Under the pieces are notes generated by a model. That model did not search any database. It was not told the origin of the DNA and worked only from the letters and a program-made list of their open reading frames with translations. From an uncultured Candidatus Saccharibacteria bacterium (GTDB taxonomy: Bacteria; Patescibacteriota; Saccharimonadia; CAILAD01; BJGX01), in contig CAZKFZ010000003.1 of the NCBI GenBank assembly GCA_964552475.1, positions 24,078-88,077 of the forward strand: a DNA stretch of 64,000 bases, given 5' to 3'. The position numbers and the translations under genes were made by a program. This document shows positions 4,205-60,054 of this stretch, piece after piece. Within the stretch, counting starts at the first letter, position 1; each line of letters begins with the position of its first letter.

Positions 4205-5047
4205 TTAAATATTTACATACTCTTTTAGGGCATCTCGCCACATACGGCGGTTATAGTGCAGCTCGCGGTCTACGTAGCTACAGTCTAATGCTGTGTAGTG
4301 TGGTCTAGTAGCAATAGCGCTAGTATCTTTACCGGCATAGTACTGCTGGGTAGTTACTGGCGCTACCTTGCAATCTAGGCCAGCGATTTCAAACACCGCT
4401 TCTGCGAGTGTTGCCCAGTTAATAGGTTCTCCTCTATTACAGAAGTGGTAAATACCGCACCTTGGCTTAGTCTGCACTAGATACTTACAAAATTGTGCAA
4501 GATCTATAGCGTAAGTGGGCAAACCCCACTGATCGTTAACAACCGATACTTCATTAAGCTCTTTGCCTAGGCGAAGCATGGTACGAACAAAGTTGTTGCC
4601 GTCGCCATATACCCACGAGGTGCGAACCACGTAGTGGCTATCAACGCCGAGGGCGTATTGCTCACCAGCTTGTTTGGTGGTGCCGTAGACGTTTAGCGGA
4701 TTCACCGCGTCGTCTGGCTTGTAGCCAGTCTTGGCTTTACCATCAAACACGTAGTCGGTACTAATGTAGATGTAGGTGGCTCGATTCTTTGAGCACGCTA
4801 TAGCGATGTTTAGAGAACCATCGGCATTTACTCGCTTCGCGTCGTCGCGATGAGTTTCTGCACCGTCTACATTGGTATAGGCTGCGGCGTTAATTACTAC
4901 ATCGGGCTTGTGAGCGGCAACTATTCCAGCTACTCTCACAGCATCGGTAATATCTACCTGGGTGTGGTCGTAAAAGATCGCCTCAGGCATAACATTTTGT
5001 AATGCCCTACCTAGTTGTCCGTTGGCGCCAAATACGAGTACTGTCAT
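4205..5047 (-). CDS. rmlD: dTDP-4-dehydrorhamnose reductase RmlD
   Basis: 'MTVLVFGANGQLGRAL' Rossmann N-terminus; 280 aa; 4-bp overlap (ATGA) with rmlC. Confidence 0.85.
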   Translation of the reverse strand: MTVLVFGANGQLGRALQNVMPEAIFYDHTQVDITDAVRVAGIVAAHKPDVVINAAAYTNVDGAETHRDDAKRVNADGSLNIAIACSKNRATYIYISTDYVFDGKAKTGYKPDDAVNPLNVYGTTKQAGEQYALGVDSHYVVRTSWVYGDGNNFVRTMLRLGKELNEVSVVNDQWGLPTYAIDLAQFCKYLVQTKPRCGIYHFCNRGEPINWATLAEAVFEIAGLDCKVAPVTTQQYYAGKDTSAIATRPHYTALDCSYVDRELHYNRRMWRDALKEYVNI

Positions 5048-41655: not shown

Positions 41656-41728
41656 TGGGCCTGGAGGGAATCGAACCCTCGACCAAGGCATTATGAGTGC
41701 CACGCTCTAACCATTGAGCTACAGGCCC
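41656..41728 (-). tRNA. tRNA with CAT anticodon (elongator Met or lysidine-modified Ile2)
   Basis: Minus-strand GGGCCTGTAGCTCAATGGTTAGAGCGTGGCACTCATAATGCC...GGTTCGATTCCCTCCAGGCCCA; the anticodon stem-loop resembles E. coli ileX; CCA not encoded. Confidence 0.8.
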
Positions 41729-41732
41729 TACG

Positions 41733-41807
41733 TGTCCGAAGAGAGATTTGAACTCTCGACCCCTTCCTTGTAAGGGAAGTGCTCTGGCCCAACTGAGCTA
41801 TTCGGAC
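41733..41807 (-). tRNA. tRNA-Val (TAC)
   Basis: Minus-strand GTCCGAATAGCTCAGTTGGGCCAGAGCACTTCCCTTACAAGGAAG...GAGAGTTCAAATCTCTCTTCGGACA; 4 nt from the neighbouring tRNA. Confidence 0.8.
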
Positions 41808-42049
41808 GGGAGAATAGGGAGGAGCAAATTCCCTATTCGGTGCAGGTTGAAAGCCTACGGGAAGAGCATGGAGCGCCTAGCCTTGATACACAAGACACCT
41901 GCCATAATTGCCAACCATCGGACTCCATGATTAACCCCGTTTGACTGGGTAAAAATTTGCATTACGCATAATTTGTAATACTTGTTTTTACCCCTGCCTA
42001 CGTTGTTTTTCGCGCAGCTCACACGACTATCAAAACAACGCCTGCATCG

Positions 42050-42134
42050 TGCCGGTGGCGGGACTCGAACCCGCACGCTCTGTTAAGAGCACCGGGACCT
42101 AAACCCGGCGCGTCTGCCATTCCGCCACACCGGC
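42050..42134 (-). tRNA. tRNA-Leu (TAG)
   Basis: Minus-strand GCCGGTGTGGCGGAATGGCAGACGCGCCGGGTTTAGGTCCCGG...GCGGGTTCGAGTCCCGCCACCGGCA with long variable arm. Confidence 0.8.
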
Positions 42135-42146
42135 TGGTGTAATTCG

Positions 42147-42219
42147 CGCCCACGGCAGGATTCGAACCTGCGACCATGTCATTAGAAGTGACGTGCTCTA
42201 TCCACTGAGCTACGCGGGC
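42147..42219 (-). tRNA. tRNA-Arg (TCT)
   Basis: Minus-strand GCCCGCGTAGCTCAGTGGATAGAGCACGTCACTTCTAATGAC...GCAGGTTCGAATCCTGCCGTGGGCG. Confidence 0.8.
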
Positions 42220-42228
42220 TGAGTAAAG

Positions 42229-42360
42229 TTAGCTAAATACCGAAGCCAGGCAAAGAATTGAGAAACCGAATGCCCAAAATGCTGCAAAGCCGTGTTCCTC
42301 TCTTACAACGCTAACCACAAACATGACGCCGTAAAAAATAACTAGTGAGACTACGAACAT
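42229..42360 (-). CDS. candidate 43-aa hydrophobic micro-protein inside the tRNA cluster
   Basis: ATG preceded by AAAAGGAGAAC (SD, about 8-nt spacing); translation MFVVSLVIFYGVMFVVSVVREEHGFAAFWAFGFSILCLASVFS; below the ORF-track size cutoff. Confidence 0.3.
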   Translation of the reverse strand: MFVVSLVIFYGVMFVVSVVREEHGFAAFWAFGFSILCLASVFS

Positions 42361-42384
42361 CTATGTTCTCCTTTTGTATGTAAG

Positions 42385-42467
42385 TGCCCGGAGCGGGACT
42401 CGAACCCGCACGGTCTTTCGACCCGGGGGGTTTAAGCCCCCTGCGTCTGCCATTCCGCCACCCGGGC
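42385..42467 (-). tRNA. tRNA-Leu (TAA)
   Basis: Minus-strand GCCCGGGTGGCGGAATGGCAGACGCAGGGGGCTTAAACCCCC...GCGGGTTCGAGTCCCGCTCCGGGCA; closely resembles E. coli leuZ. Confidence 0.8.
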
Positions 42468-44831: not shown

Positions 44832-46112
44832 TTAGTAAGGGTTTCTGTAAGGAAAGTTAGTATACTTAGAATTATTGTTTTTGTTGAGAATACCATCGAT
44901 CATTTCATCTAGAGTTTTAAACACATTGGCGGCATGTTTTTCACCATGGTAGCGTCGAAGGGCAAACTGACTTCTGGCGGCATTTTTTTTGGCGTTGGCG
45001 TAAAAAACACTCTGCCAAATATCTGGAATATCACTAGCAAATAGATAAGTGGCATCATCAGACTTATGAGTTATTTCACCGTTTTGGGTATTTGCTAAGT
45101 TTAGTCTCTCGGGTCGCTCAAGTATAACTGTTTCGATTATTTTGCCTGCGTGCGTGCGTAATTTAATAAGTAGCGCCAAATAGGGAATAGGGCTAGAATC
45201 AGAATCTAGGCTAGACCTGTATAACTCGGTGCTCACCACCGAACCGTTGTCGTTACAAGCATCGGTAACTTCTTTTATAAATCTTAGCCTATCTTGGTCT
45301 AGCACAAACTCTACTTCATTTATCCGCTCACCACTCGATCGTCTTGACCCCTTTGGTGTGCTAACTGGCAAGTGATCTTCTCCGGCTTCCGGCAGTCCAT
45401 CTACCCACTCAAAAAAAGCTCGTTTTTGTTCTTCACCAGATAAATTTAGTACCTCATCAATAGTTATAGGGGGGCGTTTTGACTCACGATTTTCTTGGTA
45501 GTTATTATGTTGTTGCTGACCATTATCTTGTGTATTCAAGTCTAGTAGCTCTAGTAGTTTTTGCTGAGCATATCTCGACACCTTAAGTCTCTCTGGTGTA
45601 AGAAGTTCACCAGATTTTGGTCGGTGTACCAAATCACGCAAGCCATTAATCGATAATCTAAAAACGTGGTCGTCGCTACTTTCTTGTGAGTGATGAGGTA
45701 CACTTTCTGTGCTAGTTAGCTGTTTATCTAAGCGTGCTGCAACAATACCTAGAACATATACTCGCTCTAGTTGACTTAGTCCCAGGTGGGGTAGTGAGTG
45801 AACAAACTTGGGGTCATGTACAGCTTCGCTAAGGTCTATATTGTGTCTATCTAAGACATCTCTTACTCTCGAGGCTATTTGAGCGGCTTCAGACTCATTG
45901 ACGTTAATATCCTCAGGACTTTTTAGATATTCATCGGCTTTAATAGCTTCATAAAGAGGTGTTCCTTGTAAATTTTCTGGCAAGTCATCTTCTAAATAAC
46001 CTCTTTTATCCAGGTTCTTTACAGTATCCCCAAGCTTAGGTACTTGGCTAAGGTGTAGGTTTGTTTCTTCATCCTCAAAAGGTGGTCGGTAGGTCTCGTC
46101 ACTAAAATCCAT
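44832..46112 (-). CDS. acidic hypothetical protein
   Basis: 426-aa ORF, no recognisable motif. Confidence 0.35.
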   Translation of the reverse strand: MDFSDETYRPPFEDEETNLHLSQVPKLGDTVKNLDKRGYLEDDLPENLQGTPLYEAIKADEYLKSPEDINVNESEAAQIASRVRDVLDRHNIDLSEAVHDPKFVHSLPHLGLSQLERVYVLGIVAARLDKQLTSTESVPHHSQESSDDHVFRLSINGLRDLVHRPKSGELLTPERLKVSRYAQQKLLELLDLNTQDNGQQQHNNYQENRESKRPPITIDEVLNLSGEEQKRAFFEWVDGLPEAGEDHLPVSTPKGSRRSSGERINEVEFVLDQDRLRFIKEVTDACNDNGSVVSTELYRSSLDSDSSPIPYLALLIKLRTHAGKIIETVILERPERLNLANTQNGEITHKSDDATYLFASDIPDIWQSVFYANAKKNAARSQFALRRYHGEKHAANVFKTLDEMIDGILNKNNNSKYTNFPYRNPY

Positions 46113-46180
46113 ATAGATATTCTAGCATAAGTATAATAGTTATATGTAATTAAAAACCCCGATATTACTATCGGGGTTTA

Positions 46181-46489
46181 TCAATTGGTTTGCCTAGCTC
46201 CTCCAATATAATTTCTACAAAGTGCGCAACTGATATTGTGTATAAGAACGCTATCAATAAATGGTTTGCCATGCTTGAGGGCGTTATCAATACAGACTCG
46301 ATTTACTAAACACTCAGTTGAGTGAAACTCGTCATAGTCTGCTCGATGATCTGCTAAAATAGTCTCATCGAATGGATCTACCATAGTTACTGCTTGGCCT
46401 GGTATCTCGGTAGATTCTGTAGGTACAAGGCGAAACAGGCCATGTAAACGCCCTAAAAAATCTTCGTAAGTTACTACTTTGGCAGGCAA
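46181..46489 (-). CDS. hypothetical protein
   Basis: 102-aa ORF with several Cys/His residues; no motif recognised. Confidence 0.3.
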   Translation of the reverse strand: MPAKVVTYEDFLGRLHGLFRLVPTESTEIPGQAVTMVDPFDETILADHRADYDEFHSTECLVNRVCIDNALKHGKPFIDSVLIHNISCALCRNYIGGARQTN

Positions 46490-46600
46490 AGTATCTCTCT
46501 TTCTATCTTTACTATAAAGTTGGGTGCAATGATGTCAATATTTTACAACAGAACACACAAATATGCAAATAAAATGCCCTAGATAACTCTAGGGCAAATA

Positions 46601-47146
46601 TTATCGTGTAGGTGGCAGCCCGTACTGAGCTAAGCTACTGTTCTTATAGCCTGGCTCATTACTCACCTCGTTTGCAACACCTAGCCATGCTGGCAACTCA
46701 AAGGTAAATATTTCTGGACGTACTTCTTTAAGCCAACTTAGAAGAGAGGTCTCATCTTGGGTATCATCGGTAGCGAGCTCTACTAGCCACTCAGCCTCAA
46801 TAGTGACAAGCCCATCTAGATTGTCATGGTACTTGTCTAGCTCAAGCTTAACCCCACTTGGGTTATAGAATGTCCATCGGGTTTTTCTAAGCCTGTAAGC
46901 CGATAACACTACAAGCTCATCGTAGAGCCACTTTGGAATTTCAACTTCTTCTTCTACTCTAGCAACATCACCATCAGATTTTTTAGTTACTGTATAGTTT
47001 CTGCCTGCACTTCTAATGCGAAACCCACCTTTTCGAGTACTAATATAGTTTTGCTCTATTTCTTGAATACTGGCATTTAGTATCTGACCAAATGTCGTGA
47101 AACCAGGTAAAACCCATTTACGTTCTACCTCGATAGTTTGGGGCAA
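46601..47146 (-). CDS. CYTH-like (triphosphate tunnel metalloenzyme) domain protein
   Basis: N-terminal 'IEVERKWVL' matches the CYTH ExExK signature; 181 aa. Confidence 0.5.
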   Translation of the reverse strand: MPQTIEVERKWVLPGFTTFGQILNASIQEIEQNYISTRKGGFRIRSAGRNYTVTKKSDGDVARVEEEVEIPKWLYDELVVLSAYRLRKTRWTFYNPSGVKLELDKYHDNLDGLVTIEAEWLVELATDDTQDETSLLSWLKEVRPEIFTFELPAWLGVANEVSNEPGYKNSSLAQYGLPPTR

Positions 47147-47260
47147 GACATCTCCTTAAAAGGTAGTAGGCCAACAACAGGTTAGCACGGACCAGTTTTG
47201 GCGTCTAGTCAAAACATTTTAACTAAAAGTAAAACCCCAGAATCTCTCCCGGGGTAAATG

Positions 47261-47926
47261 TTATTTTGATTTAAACTTATCGAGCAACCCAGCCATCCCA
47301 AAATGTAGCTTCTGTTGATATTGGGCATCCTCAAGCGCATGGTGCGTGAAGTCGCCACCCGGAACTATGATCGGTGGCAACTTGTTCTTACTAGTCTTTG
47401 ACCAATCCCACTCGCCAGTTAGCGGCAAGGCAAGCGACTTGAGATCAAACGGGGCTATCCCAAATGGGTTGTCCATACCGGCCTTTGCAAAATACATATC
47501 GACAAAGGCGAAGTCAAACGCTGCGTTGAAGGCTGTGAAAACCACTGGCTTACCATGCTTTTGCATCAATTCACTAAGCCATTCTGCAAATTCCCGCATT
47601 ACCTGCTCAAAGTTCGGCGCCTCTTGAAGCAGTCGTTCACGTGGTAGCCCATGAGTTTCGCAAAACTCCCGTTGGCCTAGCACAAAGTCTTCACTGATCG
47701 GACGAATCTCAGAATAATACGACTCGCCAGTTGGGCTCTGGGCACCGATCGACAGCATTGAGCCATGCCCTGCCTTGCCATCGGCCTCAATATCTACATC
47801 GACGTACAGTTGTGGCGCGGCCAGCACAATCTCGCGCCCGCGTTCGTATAAGCGAGCACGCTCGCCTTCAATGCTGTCATGCACTCCAAATTCTGACGGT
47901 TCATTCATATTACTAGTATAGCTCAT
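47261..47926 (-). CDS. DEDDh-family 3'-5' exonuclease (DnaQ-like); first gene of the GC-rich island
   Basis: Exo I 'VDVDIEADG', Exo II 'FNAAFDFAFVD', Exo III 'HHALEDAQY'; GC content clearly above the window background. Confidence 0.7.
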   Translation of the reverse strand: MSYTSNMNEPSEFGVHDSIEGERARLYERGREIVLAAPQLYVDVDIEADGKAGHGSMLSIGAQSPTGESYYSEIRPISEDFVLGQREFCETHGLPRERLLQEAPNFEQVMREFAEWLSELMQKHGKPVVFTAFNAAFDFAFVDMYFAKAGMDNPFGIAPFDLKSLALPLTGEWDWSKTSKNKLPPIIVPGGDFTHHALEDAQYQQKLHFGMAGLLDKFKSK

Positions 47927-48048
47927 GTTGTCTCCTTATGTAGAGGTCAAGGTGCCTTCTGGGAGCGGTTCCCAACCAAAACTCTTGATTACTCTCAAGA
48001 ACTTTGGTTGGGGGAGCTTTTTTATAGGAGCTCCCAAAACCTATTAAG

Positions 48049-48291
48049 TTAGCACCTGTCTGAGTGTATGAAACAGCCACCAACTGCAGTGTCGCAGCCA
48101 CCAGGGCACTGCCTCCCAGCAGCTACTTCGCGAGCTATATAGTCATTCTCTTCTCGCTTTCGCTGGGCAGCCCGCGCGTAATCTCCGCGCGCTTCGGCAG
48201 CTTGCCACTCATAAGCTTCTGCCCTAAGTCTCGCAGCTCTGGCCTTGCCTTCTAGCTCTGCAGCTCGTGCTTCTGCTTCGTAATCGCGCAA
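48049..48291 (-). CDS. small coiled-coil protein with C-terminal Cys-rich zinc-knuckle motif
   Basis: TTG start; Ala/Arg/Glu-rich helix then 'CPGGCDTAVGGCFIHSDRC'; preceded by island leader motif copy 2. Confidence 0.4.
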   Translation of the reverse strand: MRDYEAEARAAELEGKARAARLRAEAYEWQAAEARGDYARAAQRKREENDYIAREVAAGRQCPGGCDTAVGGCFIHSDRC

Positions 48292-48568
48292 CTCTATTCC
48301 TTTGTCTAGGCACTACCGTGTATTAACGGCCTGGGACACTCCCAGCCAAAATACTCGAATGCTTTCAAGAACTTTGGTTGGGAGGGAGCCGGCTTACAAT
48401 AGCCGACTCCCTCGGTAAGACAGATCTACCAAAAGATCGCGCGCAGAGCGACGAACTCTAGATAGCTAATTAGCGCGAGTACAGCCAAAATGGTGAGGGT
48501 GGTGAGTCGCTGTGTTGTGATGGGCTTCATTGCTTTCTCCTATGATGTGTAGTGAAGGGTAGTTGAGA

Positions 48569-49093
48569 CTAGCAGCTACTGGCATGTACAAAACATCCGC
48601 CAACATCGGTGTCGCAACCGCCCTTACATTTCATGCGCCCACCTATCATCTGTTGGGTAGCTATGCGACGCCTACGCTCGGCTTCATGTGCCTCGGATCG
48701 CTGTCTTGCTTGACGGTTGTTCAGACCCGGATAGAATCCGCTGGGAGCATCAAGCCATTCTACACTCTCATAATCTATCTCTTCTTTAGGTTGATCATCG
48801 TGTTGGAAGGCTTTGCTTGTTGGCATTTTCGTAGGAATGCCCACCTTCTTCTTAGACTCTTGCGTAGTTGTTTGCGTGTTTTGCCACACAACCACTCGTC
48901 TTTTGCATACCGGGCATTTTACTGCCAGAAATTTTTCTCGCGTCACGTAGGTATCGGCTTGATCAACCTCGATCTTACTACCGCATTTTTCGCAGGTTAC
49001 TCGCTTGGGCCATTTCAAATGCTTGGTACCCGTTTCGATGATTCTCAATTTAATCTCCTTGTAGAGGTGCAAACCTGGGAACTTCCCAGCCAA
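48569..49093 (-). CDS. zinc-ribbon protein with the same C-terminal Cys-rich motif
   Basis: 'CEKCGSKIEV...CPVCKRRV' zinc ribbon; C-terminal 'CKGGCDTDVGGCFVHASSC'. The true start is probably the TTG downstream of the conserved 'CACCTCTACAAGGAG' element, not the listed ATG. Confidence 0.4.
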   Translation of the reverse strand: MAGKFPGLHLYKEIKLRIIETGTKHLKWPKRVTCEKCGSKIEVDQADTYVTREKFLAVKCPVCKRRVVVWQNTQTTTQESKKKVGIPTKMPTSKAFQHDDQPKEEIDYESVEWLDAPSGFYPGLNNRQARQRSEAHEAERRRRIATQQMIGGRMKCKGGCDTDVGGCFVHASSC

Positions 49094-49164
49094 AACTCTC
49101 GAATAATCAAGGGCTCTGGTTGTGAGGAGCTTTTAGCAGGAGCTCCTTGAAACCTGTTTAAGGT

Positions 49165-49497
49165 CTATTGCAACTTTCTAATCACTTCTTCTACAGTAAG
49201 TCTCACAATTTCTTCTAGCTGCGCCTTGGTAATAACTCTTCTCTCTTTGGTCGTTTCTTCGGGCTTTGGACCTAGCCAAACATGATCTCGAGTGCTAGTG
49301 CAATTTTTACGACCACTAGTGTTGCATGTGTTACACCAAGTAGGTGGGTAGGTATAGTCTGGATCCATACTTTCGCGTACAGTATACCAACCAGTACGAA
49401 CTTGTTCAGTATGAGTAACTGTGTGGTAAGACATCTGCCTCCTTGTGTAGGTGCGGACTGATTTCGTCGTTTTCGACTCTTCAGGGCGAGTACACAC
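49165..49497 (-). CDS. hypothetical small protein (GC island)
   Basis: 110-aa ORF preceded by the conserved 'CACCTACACAAGGAGG' ribosome-binding element. Confidence 0.35.
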   Translation of the reverse strand: MCTRPEESKTTKSVRTYTRRQMSYHTVTHTEQVRTGWYTVRESMDPDYTYPPTWCNTCNTSGRKNCTSTRDHVWLGPKPEETTKERRVITKAQLEEIVRLTVEEVIRKLQ

Positions 49498-49548
49498 TCG
49501 CCGATCAAGGGGAGGTTTTGAAAGGACCTCCCTGAAACCTTTCTCGAC

Positions 49549-50142
49549 TTAGCCGAGACTTGTCAGGTCTGCGAGCACTTGCTGAAACACCCGTTCGGCC
49601 TTGCGGTCAATATTGGGCTCGGCAGCGATGAAGTTGTGACGTGGGTGGGCGCTCCACACTTTTCGAGTTGACAGTTCGAGTTTCGTGGCCTCCTCGAGCG
49701 ACTCCATGCGGTCGGCGTTGCCCTGCGTGCCGTAGTTCGCAGGATTGCCGGTCGCCAGAGACTCTAGGTGGTAGATAGCGCAGTAGCGTTGCAAGGTCAT
49801 ATCCAGATCTACCCCGTAGGTCTCTGTATACTCCCTTACACCGCCTTCTAGGTAAGCTGCTCCGTCCAGAACACCTCTATCAAGCACTAGAAGTTCTTTG
49901 CCGGTTCGCTCAGCCTCGGCCAACCAGAAGTTTTCTAGCCGTAGTTGAAGCTCGAGAATGGCACCCTGAAAGTGGTGTCGCCAAGTAGGGCTGTACTCAA
50001 TCTCGCGCCCTGGTACCGGGTAGCCACCTGCGAGTAGAATGGTGGCAGACTCAGGCACAAAGGCGGCATTTGGTAGCGCGCTTCGCAAGTGATCTATTAC
50101 ACTGCTTTTTCCAGCACAAGGTCCACCAGTTAGTACCAGCAT
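49549..50142 (-). CDS. P-loop NTPase / small kinase-like protein (AAA_28 / NadR-C-like)
   Basis: N-terminal Walker A 'LVLTGGPCAGKSS'; 197 aa; 'LVLDRG' Walker-B-like. Confidence 0.5.
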   Translation of the reverse strand: MLVLTGGPCAGKSSVIDHLRSALPNAAFVPESATILLAGGYPVPGREIEYSPTWRHHFQGAILELQLRLENFWLAEAERTGKELLVLDRGVLDGAAYLEGGVREYTETYGVDLDMTLQRYCAIYHLESLATGNPANYGTQGNADRMESLEEATKLELSTRKVWSAHPRHNFIAAEPNIDRKAERVFQQVLADLTSLG

Positions 50143-50444
50143 GGGTGTAGGTATGGTTATTCCTCCAGTTGTAGGTGCTACCGTCCGGACTATCCGGCTC
50201 GGCTACCTGGCAGTGATCACATTGTGCCAGGATACCGAGTCGGAAAGCTATAGAGGCTTTATACTTACTACCACCTACGTGCTTAGTATGTGTGTTTAGT
50301 AGCTATGTATCTAGTCAATTTATTTTGAGTTAAGGTTCTTTAACTTTCGCCCTGCGTTTACTGTAGGTGGGCTCATCAGGACTGGTACTCACCAGTCGAG
50401 TTAGTGGGAGCCTTTAGCAGGAGCTCCCTGAAACCTGTCACGTC

Positions 50445-50720
50445 TCAGTTGATGCGACGCTCAGACTTGTTGCGAGAACCTACCGGCACCGTTGCTGAGC
50501 AGTTCGGGCAGATCACCACCGCCAGCTCCTCAGTAACCCGGTACTTTACTCGGTCTTCGTCTCGACCGTGCCCAGGGTCGGGGTCGAAGTAGCGGATGTA
50601 GCTGTGGTTCACCCAGCTAACCAAGTCTACCTTGTGGTCCACTTCAACCACCGATCTGCAGTTATGGCAGGCGTGTTGGCGTCGATCGTGGTGGGCATTC
50701 TGTTGGTGGACTATACGCAT
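50445..50720 (-). CDS. small zinc-ribbon protein (GC island)
   Basis: 'CHNC...CPNC' four-Cys arrangement; His-rich N-terminus; preceded by palindromic leader copy 4. Confidence 0.4.
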   Translation of the reverse strand: MRIVHQQNAHHDRRQHACHNCRSVVEVDHKVDLVSWVNHSYIRYFDPDPGHGRDEDRVKYRVTEELAVVICPNCSATVPVGSRNKSERRIN

Positions 50721-50854
50721 GTTGCTCTCCCTGGTGTCGAGGTGCTACACTCCGCTTGCGCGGGTGCCTAGGAACGGTTCCCAGCCAAAACTCTCGATAG
50801 TTCAAGGGCTTTGGTTGGGAGGGAGTTGGTTTTTAGGCCAACCCCCTCAGGAGG

Positions 50855-51175
50855 TCAGTCGAAGTACCTCTCGTTGCTGCGAAAGCTACTGAAGACTGGG
50901 ATCGAGCACCTACCGCTTCGGTTGCCACACCCCCAGTTGTTGACGTAGAGATATCCTTCCGGCACTTGGCGCCACCCGTCAAAATCATCTTCGGGGTAGC
51001 GCTCCATGTCCTTCCTCATCTCTATTTCCTTCAGCCGCTCTAGCTCTTCTACTGTCTTGGGGAGTGTTTTTGAGTCGTGGACGAAGACCATCCGCTCGCG
51101 CCTTGCTCTTTCGAGAGACACGTAGTGGTTCTCTTTGTTCATCACCCCTGCGGCGATACATCCTGCTGAACCCAT
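50855..51175 (-). CDS. hypothetical small protein (GC island)
   Basis: 106-aa ORF preceded by 'CACCTCGACACCAAGGAGAAAAG'. Confidence 0.35.
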   Translation of the reverse strand: MGSAGCIAAGVMNKENHYVSLERARRERMVFVHDSKTLPKTVEELERLKEIEMRKDMERYPEDDFDGWRQVPEGYLYVNNWGCGNRSGRCSIPVFSSFRSNERYFD

Positions 51176-51339
51176 TTTCTTTTCTCCTTGGTGTCGAGGT
51201 GCGTCTCAAGAGCTTTTCTTGAGCCTGCAGTAGTATACATTAATATCTATAAATAGTCAATATATATAACGACAAAATAAACACTAACAGATATAAATAA
51301 GTTTATATATTGTCGAAATAAAATCGTCATAATACAATA

Positions 51340-52143
51340 TTGTGCTATAATTGCAGTATGGAAACCGATACCCTTAAGGAATTAGGCTTGAGCGAATCAC
51401 AGGCTAAAATGTATTTACTCTTAATGCAGTATGGTAGTCTCACTCCACCCGAGGCAGCCAAACAGGCTGGCGAAACACGTACCACTACCTACTCAATACT
51501 CGAAAGACTTGAGACACTTGGCTTGGCAAATAAAAAGACTGGAGTTAAAAAAGTAACTTATAGCCCCACCAACCCAGCCGCGCTCGAAAAACTTGCTGAA
51601 GCTAAATACCAGCAGTCGGCCGAGCTAAAACAAAAAATAGCCAGTAATATGGCTCGCTATATGACATATTTTTATACCTACCAAGAACAACCAGGGGTAA
51701 GATTTTTCCAAGGTAAAGATGGCATTATTAAGATGTACGAAGACCAGTTGCGTACCAAGAAAAATATCTATTTTTTGCGTTCAGAAAGCGATGTAAATGT
51801 AATGGGTAAAACTATTTATAAGGTCATAGAAAATCGTCACAAGCTGGGTATTAAGGTCTACGGTATTGAGGCTGGTGAAGCTGACAATGTTGAGTTTTCA
51901 CGCCAAAACGACCTTAGGCTAGGCCGAAAGATATCTTTTTACCCTACTGGTATGTATAGTGCGCCGGTTAATTTTTATACCTATGGCACCAAAACCGCTT
52001 TAATATCTTATGGTGAAGAAGTGATAGGTACTATTATAGAGTCGCCCCAGATAGCCCAAGCCTTCCGGCAAATCCACACCATGCTCAAAATAGCCGTAGA
52101 TTCATTAAGTGATCGTCCTAAAAAGGGTAAACTAGAGATATGA
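51340..52143 (+). CDS. TrmB-family HTH transcriptional regulator
   Basis: 'LGLSESQAKMYLLLMQYGSLTPPEAAKQAGETRTTTYSILERL' TrmB-type wHTH; likely real start is the downstream Met (METDTLK...). Confidence 0.55.
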   Translation: MCYNCSMETDTLKELGLSESQAKMYLLLMQYGSLTPPEAAKQAGETRTTTYSILERLETLGLANKKTGVKKVTYSPTNPAALEKLAEAKYQQSAELKQKIASNMARYMTYFYTYQEQPGVRFFQGKDGIIKMYEDQLRTKKNIYFLRSESDVNVMGKTIYKVIENRHKLGIKVYGIEAGEADNVEFSRQNDLRLGRKISFYPTGMYSAPVNFYTYGTKTALISYGEEVIGTIIESPQIAQAFRQIHTMLKIAVDSLSDRPKKGKLEI

Positions 52144-59073: not shown

Positions 59074-60054
59074 ATGTCCACCGAAACGACCACGCCCAAC
59101 ACCGACCGCGCCGAGGAGATCAAGGCCAAGAAGCGCAGCGACGCCGCCAAGAAGGCGGCTGCTACGCGACGCCGCAACGCCGCCAAGAAGGCTGCCGAGC
59201 AGGCCGCCGTCAAAGCCACCACCGCGGTGACGCCAACGGTGCCCAACAAGGCCATCCCCGCCGCCCCCATGGGCAGCGCCAAGGCCGATGAGATCTACAG
59301 CGATCTCGCGGGCATGCTCAAGCGCATGGTCGCCGACACGGCCACCGTTCTGCCGGTTCTCGACGAGAGCAAGCAGAAGTGGCTCGAGGGCATCCTGAGC
59401 GTCGACACCGACAACCAGGCCGCCGTCGTCGGCAAGGCGAGCGACATCCGGGCCGCCCACCGCATCTTCCAAGGAGTCAAGGCGCGCGTTGCGCTCATGG
59501 CTCAGGTCACCGAGGTGGCCACCCACGAGGATGCCGTCTCCATCGAGGTGACGGTGGCAGAGGAGCTGGGCAAGGCTATGGCCGACCCCAACTACCTCGC
59601 CGACCCCCGGCACCGCGAGACCGTCGGCAAGGCGGTGCGCAAGGCGCGCTCGCAGCTCAAGATCATCGCCGATTCGGAAGTTCTTCGTGTCGGTGTGAGC
59701 TGGGCCAACACCTACCTGAACGGTGGGTGGGCGAACGTGCTCAACCAGGGGTGGATGCGGGAGAAGATCGAGGACTACATCGCGATGAGCGATGAGGCCC
59801 TCTACCCTTCCCTGCGCCGAGCTGGTGAGCGCAAGAGCCTCGGCCTGTCGCTGAAGAGCCTGTTTGCCGGAATGGTGAGCCAGCTCAAGGCGCCCGGCGA
59901 GAACAAGATGACCCAGTCCGACAAGGAGTGGGTTGCCGAACTCTCGCCGATGGTCGAGCAGCTCCAGACGGTGATTGACGCGGCTCAGGCCGTGCTCGAC
60001 ATCCAGAAGGAGCGCAAGGCCGCTGCCGAGGCCAAGGCCGCAGTCACCGAGTAG
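59074..60054 (+). CDS. very GC-rich (about 65-70%) foreign-looking gene; Ala/Lys-rich histone-like N-terminus
   Basis: 326 aa; N-terminal 'AKKRSDAAKKAAATRRRNAAKKAAEQAAVKA' AKKA-type repeats; codon usage GC3-dominated, unlike every neighbouring gene; GGAGG SD upstream. Confidence 0.5.
   Translation: MSTETTTPNTDRAEEIKAKKRSDAAKKAAATRRRNAAKKAAEQAAVKATTAVTPTVPNKAIPAAPMGSAKADEIYSDLAGMLKRMVADTATVLPVLDESKQKWLEGILSVDTDNQAAVVGKASDIRAAHRIFQGVKARVALMAQVTEVATHEDAVSIEVTVAEELGKAMADPNYLADPRHRETVGKAVRKARSQLKIIADSEVLRVGVSWANTYLNGGWANVLNQGWMREKIEDYIAMSDEALYPSLRRAGERKSLGLSLKSLFAGMVSQLKAPGENKMTQSDKEWVAELSPMVEQLQTVIDAAQAVLDIQKERKAAAEAKAAVTE

Follow-up and report, generated by a model that had tools for sequence, protein, structure and literature searches.

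Predicted hammerhead ribozymes and palindromic RNA elements at the gene junctions of a variable small-gene array in a Saccharibacteria-like genome

What do repeated palindromes do in front of a cluster of small, GC-rich genes? The window analyzed here, a 64,000-nucleotide stretch of a Saccharibacteria-like (candidate phyla radiation) genome, holds such a cluster on the minus strand at approximately 47234-51260. A preliminary description, made from the letters alone, had seen in it a horizontally acquired, cassette-like island and had read the palindromes as leaders that co-regulate its genes. Our analysis suggests that the island is probably one polycistronic operon of about 4 kb, in which two type III hammerhead ribozymes, unnoticed in that description, are predicted on the mRNA strand at two gene junctions and palindromes take the same place at others. 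The explanation that we favor, although with some reserve, is a hypervariable small-gene cassette array whose mRNA is punctuated by intercistronic RNA modules and would be cut there into single-gene units.

The transcription unit and its gene junctions

The operon comprises eight open reading frames (ORFs), for which a consensus scan for promoters and terminators gave one sigma-70-like promoter and one terminator. The outer signals are as follows (UTR, untranslated region).

51232..51260, minus strand: sigma-70-like promoter of the array, TTGACT-17-TATACT, 10/12 consensus matches
51205..51223, minus strand: 5' UTR hairpin CTCAAGA-aaagc-TCTTGAG, directly 5' of the first translation-initiation module
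47234..47255, minus strand: intrinsic terminator closing the operon directly after the exonuclease stop codon (terminator scan)

The array lies between a divergent TrmB-family regulator gene and two FemAB genes. Equivalent promoters were found upstream of related arrays in six other loci (L135, L156, L162, L163, L167 and L170), an equivalent terminator 3' of the last array gene in L163 and L167, and a hairpin at the 5' UTR position in other arrays too, but of different sequence. When 46400-51500 was scanned for minus-strand terminator-like sites after a gene, only 47255-47234 and 46596-46575 were detected, the latter following a CYTH-like gene that is not part of the array; a further match (48452-48436) is weak, with 5 pairs, falls within a 34-residue ORF and was not treated as real. 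No promoter-like sites were detected by the consensus scan in the leaders between palindromes and genes. The junction hairpins have no U tract, and intrinsic terminators were considered and rejected as the identity of the junction elements. Thus, a single strong promoter and a single terminator serve the whole set, and the repeated leader was not borne out as a signal of co-regulation.

The GC content of the unit (47234-51232) is 0.512, compared with 0.399 in the remaining window; along 47-51 kb it runs at 0.475-0.54, with surroundings of about 0.40. GC content at third codon positions (GC3) is 0.67 in gene A, 0.69 in gene B, 0.57 in the nucleoside triphosphatase (NTPase) gene and 0.52 in the exonuclease gene, versus 0.29-0.39 in flanking genes (all array genes are listed in the last section). 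The island is therefore as GC-rich and compositionally foreign as had been claimed. Gene D, however, has a GC3 of 0.33, like the flanking genes, and the island is therefore a compositional mosaic.

On the mRNA the junctions follow one order: stop codon, post-stop hairpin, hammerhead or palindrome, sometimes a small hairpin, the initiation module GCACCUYGACA..AAGGAG and the start codon. The same grammar was found in all six syntenic loci, where the helices of the modules show compensatory changes, and in all seven arrays a hammerhead or a palindrome always stands between the post-stop structure and the initiation module. The two hammerheads of the window are predicted from sequence at these positions.

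50341..50403, minus strand: HHR-2 (hammerhead ribozyme 2), type III; predicted cleavage between C50398 and G50397
49456..49510, minus strand: HHR-1, type III; predicted cleavage between C49503 and G49502; Rfam Hammerhead_3, 32.5 bits, E 3.9e-4

The core pattern CTGANGAG..CGAAA has two matches in 64 kb (50379-50345 and 49484-49462; chance expectation 0.08), and both fall in the island on the gene (minus) strand. We compared 11 distinct hammerhead copies from the window and the related arrays. All 11 have a complete core, including C3-A9, G12-A14, A15.1-U16.1 and C17, with A, U or C at position 7, and so agree with the catalytic core C3 U4 G5 A6 N7 G8 A9, G12 A13 A14, A15.1-U16.1, H17. The topology is that of type III: three helices surround the core, of which stem III is open while stems I and II end in loops. 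Compensatory changes occur in all helices of the junction modules. Stem I is 100% paired, with both-side changes at 5 of 6 pairs (GGCGAG/CUCGCC, GGCAAG/CUUGCC, GGCAGG/CCUGCC, GACUGG/CCAGUC and CUCCGAC/GUCGGAG) and a covariation score of 0.776 versus 0.219 in shuffles. The four core-adjacent pairs of stem II form in 10 of the 11 copies, and stem III has 4-6 pairs with the compensatory variants UGAU/AUCA, UAACU/AGUUA and UGACU/AGUCA.

Directly after the stop codons lies a stable hairpin, which is usually part of an H-type pseudoknot.

50821..50846, minus strand: post-stop hairpin after gene A, GGGGGTTGG..CCAACTCCC
50403..50444, minus strand: H-type pseudoknot after gene B, CAGG..GGGAGCt-CCTG-ctaaag-GCTCCC, 53.5 bits
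49507..49548, minus strand: pseudoknot after the NTPase gene, AAAGG..GGGAGGt-CCTTT-caaaa-CCTCCC, 56.5 bits
49122..49163, minus strand: pseudoknot after gene D, 46.8 bits
48384..48411, minus strand: post-stop hairpin, GGGAGTCGGCT..AGCCGGCTCCC
48009..48050, minus strand: pseudoknot after gene F, ATAGG..GGGAGCt-CCTAT-aaaaaa-GCTCCC, 41.6 bits

A second hairpin, GGAGCT..AGCTCC with a CTGAAACCTGT flank, had already been reported and is present. The conserved CTGAAACCTGT flank is the 5' strand of the pseudoknot, which pairs with the hairpin loop in H-type fashion and leaves an A-rich third loop. In the alignment 89.6% of the cells are paired and both sides change at 6 of 11 pairs; the pseudoknot stem alternates between CAGG/CCUG, AAAGG/CCUUU and AUAGG/CCUAU, and the covariation score of the whole element was reached by 0 of 500 shuffles. 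The pseudoknot model recovered its 14 seed copies and added two from L170, which fit the pseudoknot as well; it had no further matches in ~666 kb that included control loci.

The pre-start module GCACCTC(G/T)ACA..AAGGAG, also reported earlier, is exact before genes A, B and E and occurs as close variants before D, the NTPase gene, F and the exonuclease gene.

51184..51202, minus strand: initiation module of gene A, GCACCTCGACACCAAGGAG
50727..50745, minus strand: initiation module of gene B
50162-50178, minus strand: initiation module of the NTPase gene, GCACCTACAACTGGAGG
49438..49454, minus strand: initiation module of gene D, GCACCTACACAAGGAGG
49054..49070, minus strand: initiation module of gene E
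48298..48313, minus strand: initiation module of gene F, GTGCCTAGACAAAGGA
47932..47955, minus strand: initiation module of the exonuclease gene
50752..50763, minus strand: extra GNRA-loop hairpin CCGC-GCAA-GCGG between palindrome module copy 4 and the gene B module, with equivalents in L156, L162 and L167
50143..50340, minus strand: structured leader of the NTPase cassette, ~200 nt, conserved in L156, L163, L167 and L170

The first gene has a plain hairpin (51223-51205) in the position of the hammerhead or palindrome, so that a helix stands immediately before every initiation module. In the NTPase leader, one hairpin (GTTAAAGaacCTTAAC) is in competition with stem III of the hammerhead; a long one, CTCGGTA-CCTGGCA..TGCCAGG-TAGCCGAG, and a CCGGATAGTCCGG hairpin are also present. 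The leader matched no Rfam family. The motif AAA(A/T)(G/A)TTTTGACT(A/G) occurs in this leader (~50310-50336, minus strand), again past the array terminator (~47200-47222, minus strand), and upstream of exonuclease operons in other lineages (L140, L141, L201 and L204). It may be a common promoter or operator.

The palindrome and its two predicted pairings

The four palindromes that had been described at 47971-48013, 48341-48383, 49085-49128 and 50779-50819 were all found. As modules they extend slightly further.

50766..50821, minus strand: palindrome module, copy 4, with a long hairpin (50779-50820) and an overlapping short hairpin (50768-50784), 74.7 bits
49073..49126, minus strand: palindrome module, copy 3, 63.7 bits
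48329..48384, minus strand: palindrome module, copy 2, 62.5 bits
47957..48014, minus strand: palindrome module, copy 1, a near-perfect palindrome, 65 bits

The palindrome half-site has seven matches in the island and one weak match with 3 mismatches elsewhere in the window (0.05 expected), and the covariance model of the palindrome found only the four copies within the window. In ~660 kb that included control loci, the covariance models matched only arrays. A generic repeat, which would have undone the earlier description, should also occur outside the island; neither the remaining window nor the control loci contain the motifs. Repeats of the repetitive extragenic palindromic (REP) or miniature inverted-repeat transposable element (MITE) type were rejected, as the motifs are confined to arrays within the sequence searched.

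The palindrome was compared over 11 copies from the window and the related arrays. The long helix is 85.6% paired over 19 positions with both-side changes at 7 of the 19 pairs, and 0 of 500 shuffles reached its score. It has two recurrent non-paired positions and competes with an alternative: a 7-bp short hairpin, 96.8% paired, in which the partner of the 3' arm (CUGGGA) is a UCCCAG further downstream. The register of this short hairpin was unresolved in four copies upon realignment with the covariance model, and a separate alignment was used for it. In L135 and in the second L167 copy (L167b) all three segments co-vary (CUCAA / CUGAG / CUCAG in L135), and the inner arm of L167b is wholly different in sequence yet still paired. 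Dual duty accounts for an A.C mismatch that recurs in the long helix, since in the short hairpin this C is paired with G. The energy difference between the two conformers ranges from -5.4 to +6.8 kcal/mol, and each of them is more stable in about half of the copies. According to these folding models, the palindrome is probably bistable: its 3' arm has two alternative partners, the 5' arm (long hairpin) and the downstream segment (short hairpin).

Which strand carries these structures? It had been proposed that substitutions in the palindrome keep pairing only on the plus-strand transcript, but this applies to one position only (A.C on the gene strand, G.U on the plus strand), and two other positions form G.U solely on the gene strand. 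Over the 11 copies, the long helix has 22 G.U pairs and 30 mismatches on the gene strand versus 16 and 36 on the opposite strand. For the short hairpin the preference for the gene strand is clear, with 8 G.U pairs and 2 mismatches versus 1 and 9, and the covariance model scored 55-76 bits on the gene strand versus 21-40 on the other. A plus-strand antisense RNA was rejected on these counts and scores.

Rfam searches of small sub-regions gave no family for the pseudoknot, the palindrome or HHR-2. Twister, twister-sister, pistol, hatchet, HDV-like, hairpin, preQ1 and other RNAs were not detected at E up to 10 in searches of 5.5 kb and 531 nt.

Proposed processing of the mRNA, rival explanations and known systems

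It is possible to arrange these modules into a pathway. The hammerheads would cleave the polycistronic mRNA into capped single-gene mRNAs. The upstream product would end a few nucleotides past the pseudoknot with a 2',3'-cyclic phosphate, a plausible shield against 3'-to-5' decay, and the downstream product would have a helix at its start and the initiation module 2-5 nt behind it. As the palindrome occupies the hammerhead slot, it most plausibly serves the same purpose; at its junctions it may do the equivalent job, most plausibly as a site for a double-strand-specific endoribonuclease (RNase III-like). After such a cut the freed 3' arm could refold into the short hairpin at the new 5' end, which would explain the conservation of both pairings. 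The conserved junction modules might also provide homology for the swapping of cassettes.

In phage T7, the RNase III sites that separate the early genes on one long transcript are imperfect hairpins, related in sequence and about two helical turns long. The palindromes are predicted to resemble these sites, also in their conserved internal mismatches, and hairpins would be left at the product ends. They differ in being apparently bistable with a second covarying pairing, in the putative nature of RNase III cleavage, and in the separate pseudoknot upstream.

Other roles for the palindrome have to be weighed against processing by an RNase. Alone or together with the pseudoknot, it could be a new class of self-cleaving ribozyme that replaces the hammerhead at equivalent junctions. 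Such a role would fit an element that takes the same slot as hammerheads in seven arrays, has a conserved and covarying structure and matches no Rfam family. However, its conserved nucleotides are mainly in helices, both of its loops are variable and there is no evident conserved unpaired core; moreover, many ribozyme-associated motifs failed to cleave when tested (PMC6765202). We consider this role improbable, and it would likewise be surprising if the palindrome, possibly with the pseudoknot, proved to be a self-cleaving or processing RNA of a hitherto unknown kind and interchangeable in function with hammerheads. If it did, a candidate-phyla-radiation bacterium would have an RNA-punctuated gene-cassette system, and its junction modules would both process mRNA and mediate cassette exchange. 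The palindrome might instead be a translational or structural switch and no cleavage site, with alternative pairings that gate the downstream ribosome-binding site or couple the translation of neighboring genes. The conformers are nearly iso-energetic, both pairings covary, the shared arm is purine-rich and Shine-Dalgarno-like with pyrimidine-rich partners, and forcing the long hairpin makes the downstream segment of L156 and L162 pair with the initiation module. Yet the predicted pairing probability of the Shine-Dalgarno sequence clearly shifts in only 2 of the 11 copies, the hammerheads stand in the same slot without such a switch, and no ligand or trigger is evident. We view a switch as rather unlikely.

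Two further explanations place the function of the palindromes in the DNA. They could be attC sites, and the island either the cassette array of an integron or a group of attC sites that lacks an integrase. As in integron arrays, one promoter serves promoterless small ORFs in one orientation, the cassette content varies among relatives, and imperfect palindromes lie between cassettes, with ends that resemble RYYYAAC / GTTRRRY. However, 9 of 11 copies have GCT (3' end GCTG(G/A)G) and not the near-invariant GTT, the last base being a purine (A or G); at 43-49 nt the elements are below known attC length; junctions with a hammerhead and no palindrome violate the rule of one attC per cassette; and no integrase family was found in the flanks of the six syntenic loci (Cpn60/10, PGM, TrmB, FemAB, tRNAs, PDT and TsaD were listed). 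In addition, the exchange junction is not at the G/TT position expected of an attC site but ~50 nt past the palindrome, in the initiation module, and exchange occurs at borders of RNA modules; the adjacent short hairpin folds only on the mRNA strand, and the elements behave as mRNA-strand structures. We rejected attC sites on box consensus, length, hammerhead junctions, integrase and position of the exchange junction, and consider them very improbable. The palindromes could also be DNA operators (for example, for the adjacent TrmB-family regulator) that co-regulate separate promoters, which was the regulon idea of the preliminary description. Their symmetry and the conservation of a regulator gene beside every array agree with this, but there are no promoter-like sites between palindromes and genes, hammerheads replace palindromes at some junctions, and it is pairing that is kept by compensatory changes and not sequence, as the entirely different inner arm of L167b illustrates. 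The elements are intercistronic RNA structures of the mRNA strand with compensatory changes, which a DNA operator does not need. Operators were rejected because the consensus scan gave no internal promoters and pairing rather than sequence is conserved, and we give them hardly any credence.

Several points also weigh against the preferred processing model. Self-cleavage of the hammerheads is a prediction. Their stem III is short (4-6 pairs), Rfam Hammerhead_3 gave 25-32.5 bits for HHR-1-type copies, below the gathering score of 48.5, and copies with a long stem II (HHR-2-type) were not reported by Rfam even in the 531-nt search. These sub-threshold scores are due to the long insert in stem II (16 nt in HHR-2) together with the short stem III and not to a defect of the core. 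RNase cutting at the palindrome is putative; the conserved bases of the palindrome fall mostly within helices, and folding predicts a clear effect of the alternative pairing on Shine-Dalgarno pairing in only the two copies mentioned. The NTPase leader has a promoter-like TTGACT motif, and the array may not be strictly a single transcript. Finally, all arrays come from one clade, so the covariation rests on few independent events, and gene conversion among module copies is possible.

Clustered hammerheads as such are known: they flank genes in prophage-like polycistronic transcripts and cleave in vitro (Perreault et al. 2011, PMC3088659). As in those clusters, several mRNA-strand hammerheads with full catalytic cores lie here between short genes of variable identity, and processing to single-gene mRNAs is predicted. 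Unlike them, the present copies reside at a fixed, non-prophage locus of a Saccharibacteria-like chromosome, are all of type III and score below Rfam thresholds, belong to a fixed three-part junction (pseudoknot, ribozyme and initiation module), and are substituted at other junctions by a non-hammerhead element. Motifs that share hammerhead neighborhoods have been proposed as possible ribozymes (PMC3088659, PMC6765202). The pseudoknot and palindrome resemble the non-cleaving, ribozyme-associated structured RNAs (PMC6765202) as conserved structures beside hammerheads in variable gene neighborhoods, but hold defined positions relative to stop codons, ribozymes and ribosome-binding sites. Full-text literature searches found no paper linking hammerheads with Saccharibacteria or Patescibacteria. 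What is new is the lineage context, the fixed junction grammar, a pseudoknot and a bistable palindrome that are absent from Rfam, the equivalence of palindrome and hammerhead slots, and cassette exchange at the borders of RNA modules.

For the still unsettled role of hammerheads in bacteria, this locus offers a compact natural design, whose fixed grammar and exact predicted cut sites make the hypothesis of processing and capping directly testable. Clues such as a palindrome in a ribozyme slot led to twister, pistol and hatchet. In addition, standard Rfam annotation misses bona fide-looking hammerheads in Saccharibacteria-like genomes.

Related loci, cassettes and genes

The related loci were found via the closest homologs of the exonuclease and the NTPase. 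Six further syntenic loci (L135, L156, L162, L163, L167 and L170) have an array between a divergent TrmB-family regulator and two FemAB genes, all arrays being GC-richer than their own flanks by 3 to 13 points. The syntenic loci hold different gene sets, as expected of the cassette-like island that had been proposed.

Window: A - B - NTPase - D - E - peptide - F - exonuclease
L162: A - D - two other small genes - exonuclease
L156: two other genes - NTPase - Zn-ribbon gene - exonuclease
L135: B-like - D-like - exonuclease
L163: one other small gene - NTPase - different DEDDh exonuclease
L167: one other small gene - 33-residue peptide - NTPase - F-like gene - different DEDDh exonuclease

Cassettes have been both reshuffled and moved. 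A comparison of the window with L162 gave identities of 96.7% for the gene A block and 88.4% for the gene D block, as against 68-70% for the flanking genes and ~68-77% for the exonuclease, TrmB and FemAB regions. The shared A block comprises gene A and its downstream junction with the palindrome module, up to the next initiation module; in L162 it is followed by the D block, and the seam between the two lies at the Shine-Dalgarno sequence within the initiation module. At its other end the D block stops exactly where its pseudoknot stops, and beyond this point L162 has a hammerhead and the window a palindrome. Since the identity of the blocks exceeds that of the flanks and their junctions lie at modules, cassettes (an ORF with its post-stop structure) have been exchanged horizontally and recombined at junction modules. 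Among the points that support the earlier interpretation of the island are these identities and the near-orphan nature of the cassette proteins.

Most of the exonuclease-homolog contexts examined, including L136-L139, L159, L201 and L204, have no modules, and a metagenome scan with the exonuclease protein yielded 16 loci, none with modules; the RNA modules thus have a far narrower distribution than the exonuclease. A scan of a genome collection with a 16-base palindrome pattern gave 120 loci, and every examined locus was a chance match without a partner arm. Viral scans with hammerhead and palindrome patterns, as well as blastn of the island against phage genomes, returned nothing relevant and so gave no support for a phage origin.

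The array genes are as follows (aa, amino acids).

50855..51175, minus strand: gene A, 106 aa, GC3 0.67, of the small Cys-rich/Zn-ribbon group
50445..50720, minus strand: gene B, 91 aa, weak Zn-ribbon matches, GC3 0.69
49549..50142, minus strand: AAA_28 P-loop NTPase, 197 aa
49165..49434, minus strand: gene D, 89 aa, Cys-rich, GC3 0.33
48569..49048, minus strand: gene E, 159 aa, start TTG at 49048, N-terminal Zn ribbon and C-terminal CxGGCDTxVGGCF motif
48426..48530, minus strand: hydrophobic ORF, 34 aa, with its own Shine-Dalgarno sequence
48049..48291, minus strand: gene F, 80 aa, C-terminal CxGGCDTxVGGCF motif, homolog in L167
47261..47926, minus strand: DEDDh exonuclease, 221 aa, PF16473, Rv2179c-like

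All seven small minus-strand genes of the preliminary description are present, but its list lacked an eighth, the hydrophobic 34-aa ORF at 48426-48530. It had also noticed a C-terminal motif, C.GGCDT.VGGCF(V/I)H, common to genes E and F, which we confirmed. The cassette proteins are near-orphans: the search with the gene D protein gave one match, and an exhaustive search with that of gene E gave six among 1.84 billion representatives. A small hydrophobic ORF also occurs within the L167 array (4639-4740, 33 aa), and both this one and that of the window (48426-48530, minus strand, 34 aa) have their own Shine-Dalgarno sequence and no junction module upstream.

The exonuclease has hundreds of homologs at 60-80% identity, the named ones being from Saccharimonadales/Saccharibacteria and one Daviesbacteria genome. 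It matched the exonuclease "Effector" profile of PADLOC at 1e-32 and PDB 7T2S at 3.5e-25, and it resembles the DEDDh exonucleases associated with CBASS (cyclic-oligonucleotide anti-phage signalling). According to a preprint, CBASS-associated DEDDh exonucleases cleave 2'-5'-linked dinucleotide intermediates (10.1101/2025.03.04.641389). This likeness is the sole lead to a defense or anti-defense role of the array, which is speculative, as it was when first suggested. Together, a CBASS-like exonuclease, a nucleotide-kinase-like NTPase and a CYTH-like protein encoded downstream hint at metabolism of nucleotide or RNA signals in a conflict setting, although this is only a lead. More generally, the array is a hypervariable, horizontally exchanged set of small genes in an episymbiotic lineage, and its near-orphan products may act in conflict or host interaction.

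In L163 (6710-7267) and L167 (6168-6707) the last array gene belongs to a different DEDDh exonuclease family (185 and 179 aa) and occupies the position of the Rv2179c-like enzyme, which suggests selection for an exonuclease function at the array end. In the Daviesbacteria locus (L138, 6202-6882) the homologous exonuclease adjoins an IS200-type Y1 transposase gene, and no RNA modules are present.

Past the terminator, the window (44832-47146, minus strand) encodes, besides the CYTH-like protein (PDB 3typ/2fbl, E ~4e-10), one protein of 102 aa and one of 426 aa with no family match. This block is present in the window, L163 and L167 and absent from L135, L156 and L162, so it forms a second variable block at the same locus. 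Five tRNA genes (window 41656-42467, minus strand) lie beside the FemAB genes and are conserved in the syntenic loci. Elsewhere in the window (59074-60054, plus strand) is a lone gene of 326 aa with a GC content of ~0.65 in a genome of 0.40. Its 5' sequence, GCACATCTGCCCCAAGGAGG, resembles the initiation module of the array and a long nested hairpin lies 3' of it; it looks like another horizontally acquired gene.

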